From assembly GCA_964491045.1 (NCBI GenBank), contig CAZBFA010000001.1:1-28355 (forward strand): a DNA stretch of 28,355 nucleotides, given 5' to 3'. The stretch's first letter is position 1; each line of letters starts with the position of its first letter. Origin of the DNA: Candidatus Woesearchaeota archaeon (GTDB taxonomy: Archaea; Nanobdellota; Nanobdellia; SCGC-AAA011-G17; JACPNG01). Made by a program: the position numbers and the translations under genes. Below the pieces are notes generated by a model that was given only the letters and a program-made list of their open reading frames with translations, was not told where the DNA came from and did no database searches. Below, one piece after another: positions 4,237 to 19,197 of the stretch.

Positions 4237-4259
4237 CTTTTTACTCTTTGCTTGAACAA

Positions 4260-5792
4260 ATGGCATCGCTTAGAAATTTTTCTCCCAGAGAATACCAGGC
4301 AAACATCCTGAAGGCATGCAAAAACAAGAACTGCCTTGTTATACTGCCCACAGGGGTTGGAAAAACGGGCATAGCCTTGCTTTTGGCGCTGGAACGATTG
4401 AATGAATTTGCCCACTCGAAAATACTGTTTTGCTCTCCAACAAAACCATTGTGCCAACAGCACACAGAAACCTTCACAAATAATACTGATCTGAACAAGG
4501 AAGACATACTGCTTTACACTGGCATGTTGAACCCAAAAAACAGGGCAGAATTATTCCAAAACAGCAAGGTGATTATTGCAACGCCGCAAACAATCCAGTC
4601 CGACATTGAAAACAGCAGGATAAATTTGAGCGATTTTTCGCTTTTGATCCTTGATGAGGCGCATAAATCAAAGATGAAGTATGCAAACACATTTGTTGCC
4701 AAGAATTACATTGAAAATGCAAAGAATCCAAGGATACTTGCATTGACAGCATCGCCCGGCAGCACAAAAGAAAAAATCAACGAGATATGCAGCAACCTTT
4801 TTATTGAAGATGTGGAGATAAGGACAGAGGATGATAGTGATGTGAAGCCTTATCTGCAGAAAAAAACAGTTGAGTACATCGGCATCGATCTTGGCAATGA
4901 ATTTGACAGCATAAGAAATCTGTTGAAAGAAGCCTACAAGGAAAAAATAGCAGACCTGAAAAAGCTTGGCATCACAAAACCAACATATCTAATCAACAAA
5001 AGAGACCTTATAATCCTGCAGAAGCAGCTTCAAAAAGAAATAGCCATGAGAAATCCATCTACCTTCTTTGGGCTTTCGCTGGTAGCAAAGCTCCTTAAGT
5101 TAAAATATCTTATAGAGCTCATAGAAACGCAAAGCCTGAAGCCATTCCATAATTTCATGCACAAGTTAAAAACCGACAATACAAAAGCAGCAAAATCCCT
5201 GCTCAATATAAAAGAAGTCATTGAAGCTGAAAAAATAGCAGATAGCCTTGTTGAAAAAGGTATGAAACACCCAAAAATTGAAAAGCTGAACGAGATAATA
5301 AAAGGGCAGTTTTCAGCAAACCCAAAATCAAAAATAATTATATTTGCAAACTACAGGGATACAATTGAAGAAATCATGGAAAATCTGAAGCATATTAAAA
5401 ATTGCCTGCCTGTAAAACTGATAGGCCATAGAGAAGGCATAACCCAGAAGCAGCAGCTGGAAACAATAGGCAAGTTTGACTCCAATGAGTACAACTGCTT
5501 GTTAACAACCTCGATAGGAGAAGAAGGGTTGTCTATGGGCACATTAGACATTGCAATTTTCTACGACAATGTTCCAAGCGCAATTAGGAGAATTCAGAGG
5601 GAAGGCAGAGTGGCAAGAATCAAGCCCGGAAAGATAATATACCTTACTGTTAAAAATTCGATAGATTCAGCATATCACTGGAAGTCAAGAAGGGATGAAA
5701 AAACAATGAAAAGCACAATAAGCAACATAAAAAATAAATTAGGTGAGCAACAGGAATTGGCAAGGTACACAAAAAATGAAAGTGATAGTTGA
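4260..5792 (+). CDS. hef: Hef/FANCM(Mph1)-type SF2 helicase, without a fused nuclease
   Basis: PREYQ, LPTGVGKT (Walker A), PTKPLCQQH, ATPQ, ILDEAH, LTASP, IGEEGL and QREGRVAR. ATG 4260 preferred over TTG 4248. Confidence 0.9.
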   Translation: MASLRNFSPREYQANILKACKNKNCLVILPTGVGKTGIALLLALERLNEFAHSKILFCSPTKPLCQQHTETFTNNTDLNKEDILLYTGMLNPKNRAELFQNSKVIIATPQTIQSDIENSRINLSDFSLLILDEAHKSKMKYANTFVAKNYIENAKNPRILALTASPGSTKEKINEICSNLFIEDVEIRTEDDSDVKPYLQKKTVEYIGIDLGNEFDSIRNLLKEAYKEKIADLKKLGITKPTYLINKRDLIILQKQLQKEIAMRNPSTFFGLSLVAKLLKLKYLIELIETQSLKPFHNFMHKLKTDNTKAAKSLLNIKEVIEAEKIADSLVEKGMKHPKIEKLNEIIKGQFSANPKSKIIIFANYRDTIEEIMENLKHIKNCLPVKLIGHREGITQKQQLETIGKFDSNEYNCLLTTSIGEEGLSMGTLDIAIFYDNVPSAIRRIQREGRVARIKPGKIIYLTVKNSIDSAYHWKSRRDEKTMKSTISNIKNKLGEQQELARYTKNESDS

Positions 5793-6432
5793 TTACCGGG
5801 AAAAGCCATCAGGCATATTGAGAGAGCTTGCAAAGCAGGGCATAGAGGCAGAAGTAAAGGCTCTTGCACTCGGAGATTTTATCATACAGACAAAAGACAG
5901 AAGCGGCAATATCATCAACCTGTGCATAGAAAAGAAAACACAGGATGATTTTCTGAATTCAATAATAGACAAGAGGCTCTTGAGGCAATTAATTGACATG
6001 AAAGAGCAGTTCCAGAATCAGCTCCTTATCATAGAGGGCAATGGTAATTTGTATTCATTAAGAAAATTCCATCCAAATTCAATTAGGGGAACGCTTGCCA
6101 CAATCTCGATAGACCTGCAGATACCAACAATAACCACAAGGTCAATTGCTGACACGGCAGCATTGATAGCAGTGATATCAAAAAGGCTGGAAAAAGACAG
6201 GAAAGACATCAGCTTGATGAACAAAAGAAAGCCCTTGTCCATTAAAGAGCAGCAGGAATTCATCATTGAGGCCCTTCCAGGAATAGGCCCAACACTTTCA
6301 AAATCACTTCTTAATGAATTTAAAAGCATAAAAAGCATAATCAATGCAAAAGAAGATGACTTCAAGAAAATAGACAAGATTGGAGACAAAAAGGCAAAAG
6401 AAATTTTCAATTTAATTCATCATGAGTACTAA
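5776..6432 (+). CDS. ERCC4/XPF-type nuclease with C-terminal (HhH)2 domain (Hef nuclease moiety)
   Basis: IVDYREK, LALGDF, IEKKTQDDF..SIID.RL, LIIEG and LPGIGP...IDKIGDKKA. ATG 5776 overlaps the helicase 3' end in the +1 frame. Confidence 0.9.
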   Translation: MKVIVDYREKPSGILRELAKQGIEAEVKALALGDFIIQTKDRSGNIINLCIEKKTQDDFLNSIIDKRLLRQLIDMKEQFQNQLLIIEGNGNLYSLRKFHPNSIRGTLATISIDLQIPTITTRSIADTAALIAVISKRLEKDRKDISLMNKRKPLSIKEQQEFIIEALPGIGPTLSKSLLNEFKSIKSIINAKEDDFKKIDKIGDKKAKEIFNLIHHEY

Positions 6433-10135: not shown

Positions 10136-11326
10136 ATGATAATACTTTTCATCAGCATTGTGCTTCTTGGAGTTATTATTGGAATAATCACAGGCCTGAT
10201 GCCTGGAATCCATATAAATCTCGTTGCATCATTTATTGCATTTATCCTTCCATTGATGGCAATAGACCCATTGATTGCTGTAATCCTTATCTTGTCAATA
10301 TCAATCACCCATATATTCCTTGATTTTATACCAACAACATTCCTTGGAGTGCCTACACCAGATAATTCAACATTTCTTCTCCCCTCGCATGAATTATTGT
10401 TGAAAGGCAGGGCATATGAAGCAATTTTTCTCTCAACTTTTGGCTGCCTGATAGGAATAATTCTGGTTTCAGCAGTTTCTCCATTATTGTCTTTGAAGGT
10501 TGAAAAAGCCTATGCCCTAATCAGTGAATTCATCCCTTACTTGCTGATTGCAGCATTGCTTGTTCTTTTGTTGAAGGAAAAAGACAAGGCATGGGCATTT
10601 ATAGTTGTATTCATGTCAGCAATATTCGGTATTGTGTCATTTGGTTTAAGCATAAAAGAGGCCTTATTTCCAATGTTTTCCGGATTGTTTGGAATAAGCT
10701 CCCTGATTGCAAGCAGAAGTTATAAGTCAAATATCCCTGAGCAAAAGATAACAAAGGTAAAGCTGGCCAAGAAAACCCCAATGCTTGTCCTGACAGGATT
10801 TTTTGCTTCATTGCTGGTTGGTTTTCTTCCTGGCCTTGGCCCGGCCCAGGCATCAATAATAGCAACATCATTTTCAAAAAATCAGGAAAGAAAGGATTAT
10901 ATTATAATTACCGCAGCAATCAATTCAATTGTGATGATTCTTGCCGTTATTGCATTGTTCACTATAAACAAATCAAGAAATGGGGCTATAGCAATAATCT
11001 CGGAGATATTCCCAAAGAATCTATCATGGCAGCATTTTGCATTATTCCTGGCAGTCATCTTGTTTGCCTCAGGAATTGCTGCAATTGCAACAATTTTTAC
11101 TGCAAAATACTTTGTAAAGATATCCAAAAAAGTCAATTATGCAGCTCTTTCCATCTCTGTAATTGCCATCATAGTCATTTTGGTCTTGCTGCTCTCAAAA
11201 CTGGCTGGCCTTCTTATACTATTTGTCGGAACTTCGATAGGCTTGATTCCCATATTAAAAAAAGTCAGTAGAAATCATCTGATGGCCTGCCTGATAGTGC
11301 CCATAATATTATACTATTTGCTTTGA
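10136..11326 (+). CDS. Tripartite tricarboxylate transporter TctA-like (archaeal DUF112) membrane protein
   Basis: GIITGLMPGIHIN, H.FLDFIP..FLGVP, LP.HELLLKG.AY, GLFGIS, LPGLGPAQA and SRNG. TATA at 10109-10116 supports ATG 10136. Confidence 0.85.
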   Translation: MIILFISIVLLGVIIGIITGLMPGIHINLVASFIAFILPLMAIDPLIAVILILSISITHIFLDFIPTTFLGVPTPDNSTFLLPSHELLLKGRAYEAIFLSTFGCLIGIILVSAVSPLLSLKVEKAYALISEFIPYLLIAALLVLLLKEKDKAWAFIVVFMSAIFGIVSFGLSIKEALFPMFSGLFGISSLIASRSYKSNIPEQKITKVKLAKKTPMLVLTGFFASLLVGFLPGLGPAQASIIATSFSKNQERKDYIIITAAINSIVMILAVIALFTINKSRNGAIAIISEIFPKNLSWQHFALFLAVILFASGIAAIATIFTAKYFVKISKKVNYAALSISVIAIIVILVLLLSKLAGLLILFVGTSIGLIPILKKVSRNHLMACLIVPIILYYLL

Positions 11327-14300
11327 GCAAACCACTTGACAAGCCCTTCCTGCTTTTCAGGGTCCTTGCCAAAAATGCTCTCTATTCTTCTCTTGGTTAT
11401 CTGCAAAACCTGGTTTAAGTATGGTGGCAGGGCATATTTTTCAGCAAGCTCCAGGCTGGGCTCAACATATTTTACAATGCTCCCTTCGGCAACTGTAAAA
11501 AGAAGCCTTCCGCTGCATTTCAAGCATCTTCCAGCCAATGGAGGCCTCCTGTATTTTTCATTGCAGTCAACGCATCTGAACTGCTGCTGCGAGAACTGCC
11601 TTAAGTTTCCTTTAATGTCCCTCATGAAATGCCTTTCTATCAGCAGTCTTGCAACATCATTTTCTTCAACACACCTTAATCTTTCAGCTAATTTCATCTG
11701 GCCATTTACCTTGTCCATCATTGTTGGTATTGACTTGTATGCGCTGCACCTTACTCCCGCATTTAAATCATCAGTGTCATGCGTGAATCCAAGGCCTTCA
11801 TATTCCTTGAATGTTCCAAGGTTATCCCCCAGCTGCTCTATCTTGATTTCTTTTGGGCTTTTATATTCCAATGCGGCTTCGTAAAGCTCCAAAGGATATT
11901 TCCAGACAACATCCATGTCAAAGACCATATTGTCAACCTCTTTGGGTATCAGTGTGGACGTTAAAACCAACGGCGCATCCTGGGTAACACCTCTCCTTTT
12001 TGGCAAAAATTTCCTGGAGAAATTAATCAGAGTGTCAAGCAGCAATATCACACAAGCCTCATCTCCGTCACATCTTGTATTAAGAATTTGTTCTCCCCAC
12101 AAAATATTTTTATCTCCTTCATCTTTCCATTCTATTTCTACACAATAAGAGTGCTGAATGTCTCTTATCTTTTCTACTTTTTTTACATAATCAACAACTA
12201 TGTCCCCATAACCTTCAAGAAAAACATGGTTGCCATTATAGGACGTTTTTCTTTGTTCAATCGGTTTCAGCTGACTTAATTTTTTACTTTTTGATTTATC
12301 TGTTAAAATAAAGAGTTTTTTTAGCTTAAATGCGTCTTTTCCATAATAAACTAAATGATGTAAAATATGTTTCTTTGGTTTTTTTGCTAATCTTTTATAA
12401 ATTTCTAGAACAGTCCTGCCTGGCATCCTTAATTTTGTTGAAGAAAATCTTGAAACTGCACCAAATCTGCTTAGCAATAAAGAGATGTCATTCAACAATT
12501 GACGGTTAACTGAATAAAAAACACATGAATTATTCTCTGGAACTACAGTTCCATCGCCATCAAAGAAAGCAGAGACATATGCCTTTATGATATTAGTTGA
12601 AGATCCAAAAAGAAATGGCGGAACTTTCTTGGTTTATGCATTGGAACCAGCATTAAAACAATAATTAAAGATAAGGTAAGGCAATTTATGGCAAATAGAT
12701 ATCTTTGTATTATCTTCTTCCAAGACAGGAGAGAGCCCAAAGACTTTCTTTATTAAGCAAGCTATTCTTCTTTGGATATCGGTGTTTCCTATTCTAAAAC
12801 TAATCTGTGTTACTGTAAATGTTTGTCGAGAGTGCCCTTCCGCCGCATAATAACCAAGAAGCGATGCAAGAGAATTATCTATTTTAAAATGGATATTATA
12901 TCTAACTTTACTGAAAGATGTACCCAGATAAATGTGTTTAGGCAGGTTGTAAGTCGCAAGCTTTAGGTCTACTAGTTTTTTAAAACAGTCAAGCGGCATA
13001 TCAGAATACCAATGATAAAGACTTTTCTTTCCTTTTAATGCCAATAAAGAGATTATCTTTTTTGACCCTAATTTAGAGAGCAGTAATCGAAAAAATTTGT
13101 GCCCGCCGCGTAATCTGATTTTTCGTTGTTCTTTTAGGGGGACATTCTCTGCCAAAGATTTAACTAAATTTATTTGTAGAACAGCATTAATTTTTGGTTT
13201 AAAATTCTCCAATAGCGCAACCTTATCACTTACAGCAGCCATTGAAGCATTTTTTAATCGGAACTTATTTGTATCATCCAAAAACATAAATTTATGGGTA
13301 GGAGTCATAATAAACTGCCTATTTGTTGCAGTAGTTATTTTGATCCATGTTTTATTTTTTGGGCCTTTGATAAAATATTTTACTTTCTTTTCTTTAAAAT
13401 TTTTTGTAAGTGGATCTACCCCATAAACAAAAAGGGATTCTTTATTTTCAATACGCAAGGTACCGGCACCGTCGATGATTTTAGTTTTAGCACCTTTTTG
13501 TATTAAGTCTTCTACATAAGGCCCGATTTCAACATGATTTACCTGTTTATGATTAATATTGTAATAAACAAATTTAGTGGTAGGAAAAACACAGTCTCTC
13601 CTAAGAATGCTGTGCATCAGCGGGTGTGCAAAAAAACCTTGTGTTTTTGAAAAGCCAATTATTCTTGCAACCATTCCTGCTGATGTATGCGGGCTCATTG
13701 CAACAACACAATGCCCGACGAGATCATTTTTATTTTTCAGATTGTAAAAAGGCTCTTGCTTGTACAGGTGAACCAGCAGATCATCCATGAATTTTGAAAC
13801 ACGAAACAATATTTCATCAGCGCCTTCTTCAACGCTTTCCTTGCAGGAAGGCAATATCACATCCTGGCATTTCAGCTCCAGAATCTGCTCTTCAGTCTTA
13901 AGTTCGTTTCCATGAATGTCCCTCATATAGCCAAGCTCTTTTAACTTTTCAATTGATGTTCCTATTTCTTTTGGCTTGAAATGGGTTATTGCCATTTCTG
14001 TCATGTCATACCTTATTGTTCCTTCCCTGTTTACATATAGCCTGTGCTTGCTTCTCAGAATTCCTTTGATTAAGTTTTCAGGTATTGCATCAGGGTTAAA
14101 AACGCCCTTGACGCCTTTTATCATCTCGCCGTATTCAGTAATTCCAATTTCATTCAGGGCTTTTCTATAATAATAGTTTATGTCTATCTCCTGCATCTTG
14201 TGGCTGGCAGATTCATGCATGCTGCATGGTTCTTCATAAGTTTTTTTGCAGTGGTAGCATGCATATCTCTTATCTGTTCTGGCTCCGCATTCCTCGCAGA

Positions 14301-16314
14301 TATTATAGATTGTTTCTTTGCTGCAGGCCTTACAGAGCATCAATGGGAAATCAGAGGCAACTTTGCCTTTTTTCAGCGCCTCCTGCATATTTCTCATTTT
14401 GCCCCCTTCCTTGCCGACAGGAAACAAAACCTGGGGGCTGCCTTTTAACCTTCTTATTTTTGCTTTTTCAGGCCTCCCCATTCTCGCTCCTATGAATGTT
14501 CCTGATTTGTCCCTTATTTTGACTCCTGCAAGCTTGTTAACAATGCTTAAGACCTCTTTGTCATCATCAAAGGTAAATATGTCAAGGTGCCTGAAATGAA
14601 AGATTAGCGATTTTGCATCCTCTCCAGCAATCACAACATTTTCCCTTGCAACAACCCTGTGAGGAATGCCCAAAAGTTCCAGTACCCGTTTAGGATCAAT
14701 AGACACATCAATTGGAACCTTAGCCGGCAGTCTCAAAATTATTTCCTTTTCAGATATCTCTGCAGTCTTGTACCAATTCAGGAAACTTAGAAACTGCTCA
14801 GTGCCTATGTCTTTCCAATGGTATGTATACCTTGGATGCATGGGAACATCAAACTGTATTGCTATCCTGCTTGCGTCTTCAAAACTTAGCTTCTTGTATG
14901 GATTCTCAATTATTTCCTTGACCAAGGTATCATCGCATTTTAACTTTGCCAATTCAGCAGCATGCCATTCTTCGTTGTAGCCGCAGGGCACTAATTTATG
15001 AGCCCTATTGAAAAAATCGCCATAATTTACCAATAAATCACCCAAGAACAATATTTCCTCAATATCGTTTCTTATCTTCATTGCCTGCTCAGCAGTCTCA
15101 ATTAAAATAACCTCTCCGCTGTTCAGTTTCACAATAGGCCCTTCCAGCTTGTCGCATACGCTGAGAACGGTTGACTTCCCGGGCCTTTCTGTCTTGAGCT
15201 GGGTCCCGATTGCAAGGTAATCATCCAGAACAGCCATTGTTGCAGGATGCACTGCGTCAGATGAAAATCCAGATGTTCTTGTCCTTCCATACCTTAATCT
15301 AAATCCCCCAATTGCCATTGGATAAGTCAATATGGGCCTTCCAGCAACTAAATCTTTTATGAAATTGTAATCAGGCATCAGCTTAACATTTTCATCAGCA
15401 GTCTTTTCTTTGCTGGCGCTCGCCCTTATCATCTTTTGCAGCTTGATGAAGTCCTCCAGAAATTTCCAGTGCTCCAGCCCAAAATCATTGCCCCATGATT
15501 TGAGCTGATTCCATAATTTAGGCGCTTTTGCGCACAAGCATTCTCCAAGAACCAGGCAAACCCCGTTCCTTATCCTGTTGGTTTCAATCCTGTCAATATC
15601 CTTGTAATTGCTTACCTCTTTTTCTTCGCTTGGATCGCCGTCAATTTGCACAGGCAGCCTTTCAACCAAAAATTTTGCTTCTTCCTCGCTTGGCAGATAC
15701 TGAAGATTGGTTATCTTCTCATGATAATCATAAAGCTCAGCCACCATTCGTTTCACTTCCATCTCGCTAGGGTCGTAAGCATTTAACCCCATTATGCACC
15801 TCACGTAATCAGCAATCAGCACAGAAACAGCGCCCGCAGTGCCGCCAGCGCTTCTTATGGGGCCAGAATAGAATAAAGCAACATAATCCTTTCCATCTTT
15901 TCTTTTCCTGAATTTTAGCTCAACAAAACCTTCTAGCGGGCTTGCAACAACACCAACAGTTATATATGCAATTCCAACTCGAATTCCAACCTCCATCGCC
16001 TCTTTCTTGCTTGAAAATTGGCAGAATTTTTCTCTTGCAGTTTCTTCCGCAAGCTTCAATGCAACTCTCCAGTCCTGCACGCCGTATATTTTCTCTAATT
16101 CCATCAATCGCTCAATGATGTTGCTGTCTTTTATCTGCGGCGCAACAATTGATATTATTCCAACAACTCTTTCGGCCATATTTTTTGCAAGCGGTATCTC
16201 AACAGCAGGTATGGGGTCATGCCCGATGGCTCTTGCTTTTCTCGCGGCATCATAGGCTTTTGCTATATTCCTGTTTATCTCATCAAAATATTCTTTCATT
16301 TTCTCAATCTTCAC
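11314..16314 (-). CDS. polC: DNA polymerase D large subunit DP2, containing an intein with one in-frame TAA (12634-12636)
   Basis: GPIRSAGGTA, GGFRLRYGR, FIGARMGRPEKAK, Zn-finger Cys clusters, catalytic CDGDE, C-terminal CxxC...CxxC and PIP-like QEGLVKWF. Track ORFs 12634..16314 and 11314..12498 share a frame and the 45 codons between them are open. Exteins are 907 + 252 aa. Confidence 0.93.
12073..13593 (-). mobile_element. Intein with LAGLIDADG homing endonuclease at RRD|CDGDE of DP2 (507 codons including the TAA)
   Basis: Starts CVFPTT (block A), TPTH (block B), LLGYYAAEG (block C), AFFDGDG (block E), SYCVEIE (block F), ends EQILNTR. Visibly more AT-rich than the flanking extein DNA. Confidence 0.9.
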
Positions 16315-17962
16315 CAGAAAAATTCATGATTTTCACTTCCCTGGTTTTTAAATTCAATATTGGAACTCTTCCCGGATTTGGATTATTCCCCGTCTTTTCC
16401 TGAAATGAAGTTTTTCCCTGAAAGCAGCTGCAATTTATCAATAGGACATTATTATAATTAACAACATCAGATCTATGCATCTCTCCAGATACAAGTATAT
16501 CAGGCAGCTTGTCTATGAAAAAAGGATCTTCTTCAGTATTTGGCATGTAAACGGTTGATGAATGTGTTGGCGCAAGATGCCTTTTCTGCAGCAAAAATTT
16601 TATCACAGTTGCAGGATTGTCCCTTGCTGAAGCCTGCCTCAACGAATCAACTTCGTCAATGTAATAATGATAGCTTGCCCCATGGTACATTAGAACATTG
16701 AATCCCTCAAAATCTTTTTTGGAATGTATGTTAACCATGCAGGGATTGCTGACCATAATCAGGTTTGGCAGCGCATACAATGCGTGCGCAAATTCCTTGT
16801 CCAATGGGGGCTGTGGTTCGGCTGCCCTTATTGAATCATGCTGCCCTGGAGAGATTATTATTTTGATGTCTTTTCTTATTAGGCTTATGCATTCGGCGGC
16901 GGCATTGTACTGCTGCATTATGTCGCGGAAAAGCAGTTCTTTTTCCTGCCCGGGATAAACTCCAACACCCTCAACAATATCACCGATAATAAACAAATAC
17001 TTCACTTTTGAAGACACTCTTTTTTGCAGGAAACTTCCGCTGTTTCCATTCAGCCAGTCAATAAATTCCAGGAATTCTTTTTTCATGAACAGCTTGCTGC
17101 CAAAATGAAGGTCGCTTATGAAAGCAACGCATGCCTCATCATCGCATTTCTTCAGCTCCTTTGTAAGAGGCACATCGGGGAATATTATCTGTGTTGCAAA
17201 AATTACTCTTCCCCCATAAACGCCAGTAATTCCTAGCACTTCATCGCACACAACATTTTTTCCTGCCTCAGCGGCTTTTCCCTCTTTATTTATTAAAACC
17301 TCTATTGTTCCTGTCGGGTCTTCTACTTTCAGGATTATATTCCCATTTTTTGTAGTCCTCTTGTCATGCACAATCCCTATCAATGCAACTGCTTCTTTTT
17401 CCTGCTTGCCTGCTATCCTGTTTATCGAAACAAGTCCCTGCAGCTCTTGCCTTGATTGCAATAGGTTTTTGATCAGATTATACCTGAGCTTGAAATATTC
17501 AACAAAGTCTTCCACCCCTCTTTTTTTGGGCTCATCTTTATATTCTTTAAGCACGATCACGCTGCTGTAATTTTCATTGGTCTTCTCTTCTTTGATATTA
17601 ACTTTCTCTTCATGCTTTACTTCTTCCAGCATCTTGTCAAGCTTTTTTTTCTCGCCAGTATGGTAACCCAATAGGTCTAGAAATACCTTGTAAGCTTCAT
17701 CATTTTTCCCTTTTTCAATCAGCACCCGTGCCTTTTCAAATTCATTCCAGTTGATGTCAATTTTTGCAAGATTATCTTCTTGCAATTTTGGCATTACCTT
17801 TATCAGGTCCTGGTTTAGCACAGACAATCGGCCATTCAGCTCAGCATCTTTTTTCAAGGAAATTAATAGCTCGGAGGAATCCTTCCCGTCAAACTCATCC
17901 GCAATGTCTGGTGACAGCAAAAATCCGTTTTCAATGAATAGTTTTATGTTTTCTTTGTTCAT
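16304..17962 (-). CDS. polB: DNA polymerase D small subunit DP1 (proofreading exonuclease subunit; not a family-B polymerase)
   Basis: OB domain (EDPTG), ISDLHFGS, GDIVEG.G.YPGQ, PGQHD..R.AEPQP, YHGAS, LLQKRHLAPTH. Overlaps cdc6 (ATGA) and DP2. Confidence 0.93.
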   Translation of the reverse strand: MNKENIKLFIENGFLLSPDIADEFDGKDSSELLISLKKDAELNGRLSVLNQDLIKVMPKLQEDNLAKIDINWNEFEKARVLIEKGKNDEAYKVFLDLLGYHTGEKKKLDKMLEEVKHEEKVNIKEEKTNENYSSVIVLKEYKDEPKKRGVEDFVEYFKLRYNLIKNLLQSRQELQGLVSINRIAGKQEKEAVALIGIVHDKRTTKNGNIILKVEDPTGTIEVLINKEGKAAEAGKNVVCDEVLGITGVYGGRVIFATQIIFPDVPLTKELKKCDDEACVAFISDLHFGSKLFMKKEFLEFIDWLNGNSGSFLQKRVSSKVKYLFIIGDIVEGVGVYPGQEKELLFRDIMQQYNAAAECISLIRKDIKIIISPGQHDSIRAAEPQPPLDKEFAHALYALPNLIMVSNPCMVNIHSKKDFEGFNVLMYHGASYHYYIDEVDSLRQASARDNPATVIKFLLQKRHLAPTHSSTVYMPNTEEDPFFIDKLPDILVSGEMHRSDVVNYNNVLLINCSCFQGKTSFQEKTGNNPNPGRVPILNLKTREVKIMNFSGED

Positions 17963-19197
17963 ACTGCAAGGCCCTCTTTTAGCAGGTCATCTACATTTTT
18001 TAGTATCTCTTCAGGCATTGCCAGGCAGACTTCTCGCGTCCTTCCATACCTCCCTTTGCTTATCACTTTTGTAGTTATTATGCCCAGCATTTCAAGCTCA
18101 GAGATAATGTCGCATAACCTTCTTTGTGTCAGGGGCCTTAACCCTACTTTGAAGCATAACTCCTTGTACACTTCATATATCTCACCAGTAAAAATTGGCA
18201 TGTTGTTTGTTATCTTGTTGTGTATGCGTATTATGGAATAAAGAGCAAGCTTGCATTGTTTTGGCTGCGTGCTTATTATATTTGTGAATAAATCTGTCTC
18301 TATCTTGTCTTCTGCAGTATCCAGGTCACCCACTTTTATGGCATTTTTTCCCCTCCTTTCTGCAATCTCACCAGCAACTCTTAAAAGGTCCAATGCTCTT
18401 CTTGCATCGCCATGCTCTTTTGCAGCATAGGCAGCGCATTTTTCAATAACACCTTCTTCCAGCACTCCTTCTTTAAATGCTGTTTTCACTCTCTGCCTTA
18501 ATATGTCCTGAATCTGCAATGCGTTGTAAGATGGGAATGTTACCTCTTCCTCACCCAGGCTGCTTTTTACTCTTGGATCAAGGCTTTGCGTAAAAACAAG
18601 GTTATTTGAAATTCCTATCAATGATATCTCTGAACTTTTTAATTCAGAATTTAATCTTGTAAGATTGTAAAGTATGCCATCCCCTATCTTTTGCCCAAGC
18701 TGATCTATCTCATCCAGGATTATTATGAGCAGAACCTTGTCTCGCTCTATTGCCTTAATGAACATCTTGTAAATTTCAACAGTAGGAAGCCCTGTTGCAG
18801 GTATTTCCTCGCCAAACTCGCTTGCTAATTGCGCAATCAGCCTGTATTCTGTATCAGCTATTCTTTTTAGCTTGCAATTAAGATAAATAACTTTGAACTT
18901 GCGGTATCCTGCTTTTTCTAATTTTGAGGAATTTTTTTCTGCAGTTGAAATCATATCATTGCATATATTCTGTATTGTCAGGCTTTTTCCAGTGCCTGTT
19001 TGGCCATAAATGAAAACATTTGAGGGCTTTTCTCCTTTTATTGCAGGAGCCATGATGCTGTTAAGCTGTTGTATCTGCTCTTCCCTGTGCAGGATTGTTT
19101 TCGGGGTATAATTTGACTGCAATACTCTTTTATTAATAAACAAAGGCTCTTGTTTTAAATAGTTTTCAAAAAAATTAGTCAGCCCTTTTTGCCCCAT
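17959..19197 (-). CDS. cdc6: Orc1/Cdc6 replication initiator
   Basis: Y.P..ILHRE.QI, GQTGTGKS (Walker A), ILDEID, RVKSSL, F.SY...QI.DIL..R, HGDARRALDLLR and C-terminal wHTH ending GRYGRTR. Confidence 0.96.
   Translation of the reverse strand: MGQKGLTNFFENYLKQEPLFINKRVLQSNYTPKTILHREEQIQQLNSIMAPAIKGEKPSNVFIYGQTGTGKSLTIQNICNDMISTAEKNSSKLEKAGYRKFKVIYLNCKLKRIADTEYRLIAQLASEFGEEIPATGLPTVEIYKMFIKAIERDKVLLIIILDEIDQLGQKIGDGILYNLTRLNSELKSSEISLIGISNNLVFTQSLDPRVKSSLGEEEVTFPSYNALQIQDILRQRVKTAFKEGVLEEGVIEKCAAYAAKEHGDARRALDLLRVAGEIAERRGKNAIKVGDLDTAEDKIETDLFTNIISTQPKQCKLALYSIIRIHNKITNNMPIFTGEIYEVYKELCFKVGLRPLTQRRLCDIISELEMLGIITTKVISKGRYGRTREVCLAMPEEILKNVDDLLKEGLAV

Follow-up and report, generated by a model that had tools for sequence, protein, structure and literature searches.

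A lone in-frame TAA inside the DP2 intein of a DPANN archaeon looks like a single-base lesion of a conserved tyrosine codon

The gene encoding DP2, the large subunit of PolD, is interrupted in a DPANN archaeon by a single in-frame TAA that lies inside a LAGLIDADG intein. Judged against homologous inteins, this stop looks like an isolated single-base lesion that affects a conserved Tyr codon of a cis-type intein typical in all other respects. In the reading that we favour, to which we assign a probability of roughly 0.55, the TAA arose by an error in the consensus or base call, or belongs to a minority allele, and the functional DP2 gene is continuous. The window, i.e., the whole stretch of DNA analysed here (28,355 nucleotides), starts at the beginning of a 34-kb contig and makes up 28 kb of it; the contig belongs to a bin of 915 kb in 172 contigs, which is 86% complete and has a GC content of 38%. 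The nearest labelled proteins belong to Pacearchaeota/Nanoarchaeota (DPANN archaea), and the sole public run that holds the locus is a groundwater metagenome. The positions of the features are collected in Table 1.

Table 1. Features of the DP2 locus and its intein, with positions in the window
Feature	Positions	Strand	Remarks
cdc6/orc1	17959-19197	minus	intact; heads the cdc6-DP1-DP2 operon
DP1, PolD small subunit	16304-17962	minus	Pfam DNA_pol_E_B and OB fold; intact; overlaps the DP2 start
Upstream DP2 open frame	12637-16314	minus	1226 aa; N-extein and first 319 intein residues
LAGLIDADG intein, 507 aa	12073-13593	minus	inserted at RRD/CDGDE
Intein Cys1 codon	13591-13593	minus	
Intein block B, TPTH (TxxH motif), intact	13294-13305	minus	
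First LAGLIDADG motif, LLGYYAAEG, acidic residue kept	12835-12861	minus	upstream of the stop
In-frame TAA	12634-12636	minus	residue 1227 of the DP2 frame, intein residue 320 of 507
Downstream DP2 continuation	11314-12633	minus	439 codons and stop; remainder of the intein and C-extein
Second LAGLIDADG motif, AFFDGDG	12550-12570	minus	downstream of the stop, upstream of every possible restart codon
TTG, first in-frame canonical start	12496-12498	minus	46 codons past the stop; without SD-like motif; unremarkable context score
ATG, first in-frame	12424-12426	minus	70 codons past the stop; AAGG abuts without spacer
Intein last residue, Arg codon	12073-12075	minus	
Cys+1 of the C-extein	12070-12072	minus	first residue of CDGDE

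The DP2 gene (11314-16314, minus strand) comprises 1667 translated positions with one internal stop. Retranslation reproduces exactly the TAA reported in the first-pass annotation and its context, AAT GCA TAA ACC AAG AAA GTT CCG (NA-stop-TKKVP), and it bears out the further statement that the frame runs on past the stop: all 439 codons 3' of the TAA are open, with neither another stop nor a frameshift, and lead through AFFDGDG and CDGDE to the stop codon of DP2 at 11314-11316. Continuity of the frame over such a distance is clearly not due to chance. The upstream frame may start at GTG 16314 (1226 aa) or at ATG 16299 (a 1221-aa product) and matches the Pfam domains PolC_DP2_N and PolC_DP2_central together with positions 6-177 of PolC_DP2_cat. 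The downstream piece aligns with LAGLIDADG_3 and, at E 4.5e-41, with positions 176-299 of PolC_DP2_cat; its C-extein comprises CDGDE and the terminal part of the catalytic domain of DP2. By accession, the DP2 matches are to PF03833 (E 3.8e-83), PF24844 (E 5.4e-113) and PF24846, the last being parted into 6-177 and 176-299 by the intein. Since the two pieces match consecutive parts of PolC_DP2_cat, the catalytic domain is interrupted by an insert. The gene thus has the N-terminal, central and catalytic domains of a PolD large subunit, and it adjoins the gene for DP1. Directly upstream of DP2, both cdc6/orc1 and DP1 are uninterrupted, giving a classic cdc6-DP1-DP2 operon.

Blocks A and B of the intein lie upstream of the TAA, and blocks F and G lie downstream of it. 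Measured against a class 1 cis-splicing intein, the sequence possesses Cys1, a TxxH motif (TPTH) and a Cys at +1; where such inteins end in Asn, Gln or Asp, it ends in Arg (..ILNTR/C), and where they are encoded in one uninterrupted frame, it has a single TAA, with nothing else breaking the frame. The ~95 homologous DP2 inteins of DPANN archaea keep the terminal Arg, and so do the mini-inteins of 169-205 aa among them. Inteins of this clade end in ..IIN-x-R/CDGDE or ..Q-I-R/CDGDE, and position -3 is conserved as Asn or Gln; between this position and the Arg stands T, A, F, L, S, M, I or V, a residue that cannot act as a +1 nucleophile. Because the Arg end is common to the ~95-member clade, it can be regarded as a clade-wide, non-canonical C-terminal chemistry that is unrelated to the TAA, and not as damage of this gene. 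In most members of the same family, DP2 lacks an intein and reads RRD-ADGDE, with Ala at +1 in all three intein-less relatives examined. The Cys at +1, found as the Cys of CDGDE in intein-bearing and in euryarchaeal DP2, co-varies with the presence of the intein, and this co-occurrence argues that the splicing chemistry of the Arg-ending clade is under selection.

Comparison with relatives sets the stop apart. DP2 is present in all 40 related genomes searched, and 8 of these relatives carry an intein at the same DP2 site; none of the 8 has an internal DP2 stop, and every stop flagged in the 40 genomes is terminal. Likewise, no interruption is found in ~95 homologous proteins composed of DP2 and intein (1600-1725 aa) from a collection of 5.8 billion proteins, in which the 1221-aa N-terminal DP2 product of the window is a singleton from one contig. 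The same stop, which the first-pass annotation had proposed to look for in related MAGs, is thus absent from both sets. In 70 aligned inteins, the column of the stop is occupied by Tyr in 59, Lys in 6 and His in 3. This column belongs to the motif G-x-x-A-Y-x-K-[RK]-V-P, in which the window keeps each of the invariant positions (Gly, Ala, Lys, Pro), and as Tyr is the residue expected there, the TAA is one third-position change away from TAT or TAC (TAY). The nearest intein homologue is only ~50% identical. The window retains 50 of 52 strongly conserved intein columns on the upstream side of the stop and 49 of 51 on the downstream side (family means, 49.9 and 48.2, respectively), in total 99 of 103 such columns, as well as both LAGLIDADG motifs. 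By this measure, the damage is limited to one codon, the intein being otherwise like any intact member of the family.

We therefore favour a continuous gene, in which a conserved Tyr codon (TAT or TAC) would appear as TAA through a change at its third base, either by a consensus or base-call error or because a minority allele was caught at a thinly covered site. Translation of the continuous gene would yield a precursor of ~1666 aa, from which the intein would excise itself to leave the RRD-CDGDE junction, as presumed for the ~95 uninterrupted relatives. We infer that a sense codon stands at this position in the reads or in most cells. An artefact had been among the options listed in the first-pass annotation, and it now fits the evidence best, given that the stop is unique, is one step from Tyr, has conserved flanks and lies where coverage is thin; proof, however, is beyond low-depth contigs that break at the very site.

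The TAA is known here from assembled sequence, and the verdict on error versus mutation rests on contigs rather than reads. The data of the source run are assembled Logan contigs; the run has a depth of ~4x and holds 87% of the sampled words of the locus, at a local word depth of ~3.4-3.8. A source-run contig (12402-12639) with two mismatches to the window extends over the stop and ends 3 nt beyond it, and by the depth arithmetic of the bins nothing in the source run covers 12640-12655. A 61-base query, each 31-mer of which spans base 12634, found no indexed run containing any of the four 31-mers sampled from it; this is weak evidence, as the contig break (the gap at 12640-12655) alone would remove most of these words. 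Exact-pattern scans of metagenome and genome contig collections, with N at the variable base, gave 0 matches, and a 200-aa protein query centred on the stop returned no partial proteins from other assemblies. Public contigs give no independent support for the TAA allele; nor do they contradict it, because the contig gap explains most of the missing words. In places, the source-run contigs differ from the bin at ~1%, which suggests strain micro-diversity. To judge from its 34-kb contig, the original assembly may have been deeper than the public run. Inside the intein (12190-13545), the source-run contigs have a word depth of 3.4-3.8, compared with 7-8.2 over the flanking exteins; other extein contigs also fall to 3.8, and no intein-less joint occurs among the contigs listed. 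This lower depth may be noise or strain micro-diversity.

A real and recent nonsense mutation, fixed or carried by the majority, is possible, if rather unlikely. Such a mutation would truncate DP2 after residue 1226, deprive it of the CDGDE half of the catalytic centre and leave PolD inactive. The lineage would then rely on a family-B polymerase, or the sequence would represent a short-lived defective variant, and intact copies could complement in polyploid cells. In its favour, the stop does stand in the assembled consensus, and the ~1% differences between source-run contigs and bin are consistent with variants among strains. The first-pass annotation had described PolD as the essential replicase in Euryarchaeota and had suggested a check for an intact family-B polymerase elsewhere. 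An uninterrupted one of 823 aa is indeed encoded on contig C24 of the same bin, so PolD is not the sole polymerase encoded, its loss would not necessarily be lethal, and the premise of an essential replicase needs to be softened. Nevertheless, PolD is essential and PolB dispensable in those euryarchaea in which this has been tested, all 40 relatives searched keep DP2, and the cdc6-DP1-DP2 operon is otherwise intact. The gene is also free of decay elsewhere, with 439 codons still open at 38% GC and a normal retention of conserved columns downstream, so that the mutation, if real, would have to be very young.

A second lone stop bears on the same question. On contig C57 (4097-4099, minus strand), an aldehyde dehydrogenase gene has an in-frame TAA within conserved sequence (..NFVTG-stop-GESVG..), and the Pfam Aldedh match, which covers positions 17-461 of 461, runs through this stop without a break. 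This is the only other clear lone-stop case in the bin: in a genome-wide scan with Pfam, none of 16 further same-frame ORF pairs has a domain that spans a stop. Such a case is expected if nonsense mutations accumulate, and two lone TAA codons in ~900 genes could be real mutations in a drifting, reduced genome. The second lone TAA likewise indicates that point lesions occur in this assembly at a low but non-zero rate, as the continuous-gene reading supposes. A different arrangement is seen on contig C6 (4555-6177, minus strand), where a 328-aa free-standing LAGLIDADG endonuclease ORF ending in TAA lies directly upstream of, and in the same frame as, a PIG-L deacetylase domain. Only 15 codons separate the stop from the beginning of this domain, which precedes the first canonical start by 38 codons; either a homing-endonuclease gene is inserted at the 5' end of the PIG-L gene, or the latter has a non-canonical start.

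The reading put forward in the first-pass annotation, a naturally split PolD, finds no positive support in the comparison, and we consider it very improbable. It supposes a nascent functional split, in which the N-half would comprise the N-extein, the N-terminal Hint lobe and one half of the endonuclease, and the C-half would have its own initiation at TTG 12498 or ATG 12426; the two would reassemble via their Hint lobes and trans-splice or associate non-covalently. The break does fall in the endonuclease domain, where natural split inteins divide, and the downstream frame is intact. However, the stop is confined to this sequence, absent from the ~95 homologues and from the 8 intein-bearing relatives, and it is one base from Tyr. 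Endonuclease residues are as conserved on both sides of it as in intact inteins, which is unexpected once the endonuclease has been broken.

Internal initiation of the C-half is conceivable, but nothing speaks for it. As previously noted, TTG 12498 and ATG 12426 are in frame and have no clear SD; further in-frame TTGs follow at 12495 and 12477. No ATG, GTG or TTG occurs within 45 codons downstream of the TAA, and no candidate start of DP2 downstream of it has an SD-like motif at usable spacing, although confident starts of this genome show an 11.6-fold enrichment of GGAGG on their upstream side. The context of ATG 12426 scores like that of an average true start and ranks in the 94th percentile of internal codons, in a position-weight model of start context that tells true starts from internal codons only weakly. 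Moreover, a product initiated at either TTG 12498 or ATG 12426 would omit the perfectly conserved AFFDGDG motif, so that the second LAGLIDADG motif would go untranslated.

Known split genes differ from this arrangement in several respects. Split inteins are encoded by two ORFs with their own starts and initiation signals, have lost the endonuclease and consist of compact pieces (N ~100-125 aa, C ~35-50 aa), and the split is conserved in relatives; here, the endonuclease is retained, the pieces measure 319 and 187 aa, no such initiation signals are seen (the weakly discriminating context score of ATG 12426 aside), and the ~95 inteins and 8 relatives are unbroken. Archaeal polymerases do provide precedents, namely the split inteins of Nanoarchaeum equitans PolB and of Methanobacteriales PolB (PMC4104785). 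N. equitans PolB is likewise an archaeal replicative polymerase broken within an intein, in a DPANN-type organism (PMC4104785). Its halves, however, are encoded by two non-adjacent genes, each of which has a start of its own and lacks an endonuclease domain, whereas the DP2 halves are contiguous, in frame and one stop apart, with a full endonuclease, no dedicated start and a break that is not conserved. Cyanobacterial DnaE (Ssp/Npu) is broken at the topological counterpart of this point, where the endonuclease inserts between Hint blocks B and F, but that split is ancient, phylum-wide and endonuclease-free, with its halves at distant loci, none of which is true of DP2 here. The PolII inteins of Pyrococcus and Thermococcus (Pab polC, PDB 2lcj; Pho PolII mini-intein, PDB 5bkh) share the host, the site before CDGDE, Cys1 and Cys+1 with the present intein; a PDB sequence search gives weak but significant similarity to the solved PolII inteins, in alignments that, as shown, stop short of the junction. 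By comparison, the present intein is a 507-aa, endonuclease-bearing DPANN version with an internal TAA, and its last residue is the conserved Arg (..IIN-x-R/C), as against Gln or Asn in the euryarchaeal PolII inteins. In our literature search, neither split DP2 nor DPANN inteins turned up as the subject of a paper.

Within the window itself, Hef offers a further comparison. Also a replication/repair gene in the form of two adjacent ORFs, it is encoded (4248-6432, plus strand) by two overlapping ORFs, one for the helicase (514 aa) and the other for the XPF nuclease (229 aa). Unlike the DP2 stop, this split recurs in 10 or more of 20 relatives, the closest (68-74% identity) among them, and the gene is fused in at least 7; the split is a genuine feature of the lineage and not a frameshift error. 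Conservation of the Hef split across genera indicates that evolved splits are kept in this lineage, whereas the DP2 stop occurs in no relative.

We give hardly any credence to another option of the first-pass annotation, read-through of the TAA, by which a dedicated suppressor tRNA or low-level decoding by near-cognate tRNA-Tyr would restore the precursor. Near-cognate tRNA-Tyr is a known misreader of UAA/UAG in other systems, Tyr is the residue expected at the TAA, and two conserved genes (DP2 and aldehyde dehydrogenase) contain an in-frame TAA; we know of no UAA read-through mechanism established in archaea. TAA is, however, the main genuine stop codon, ending 154 of 291 long ORFs, which rules out its genome-wide reassignment or recoding, and none of the 16 further ORF pairs has a domain that runs across a stop. 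In its intron mode, ARAGORN labels a gene on contig C18 as tRNA-Stop(tta). We assessed this gene by Rfam, which confirms a tRNA at the locus, and by brute-force intron placement, folding and alignment to relatives and to its paralogue on contig C46. The UUA model needs two mismatches in the 5-bp anticodon stem and was rejected. Instead, the gene reads as a two-intron tRNA-Ser, having its acceptor stem, T-arm, long variable arm and G73 discriminator in common with the tRNA-Ser(GGA) of relatives, and it is mislabelled because ARAGORN forces a single intron. With TAA as the main stop and no credible suppressor tRNA, the case for read-through is weakened. Both tRNA-Ser genes (C18, 334-456; C46, 2803-2919) apparently contain two introns, of which the first follows the D-arm and the second lies in the anticodon loop. 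With plain ARAGORN, no more than 15 tRNAs are recovered from the bin.

Collectively, the comparative evidence points to an isolated one-base change in a thinly covered bin, with no adaptation around the stop. The case is a caution that lone in-frame stops in low-coverage bins need a check of the reads before they are given a biological reading. If the split were functional after all, PolD would here be seen split for the first time, at a rare intermediate stage toward split inteins: the sequence would show, in an essential replicase, the step with which natural split inteins are postulated to begin. It would then be of use for the study of intein evolution and also as a new trans-splicing pair. 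The more interesting biology lies nearby, in a finding separate from the stop, namely the terminal Arg that is kept throughout this clade of DPANN DP2 inteins.
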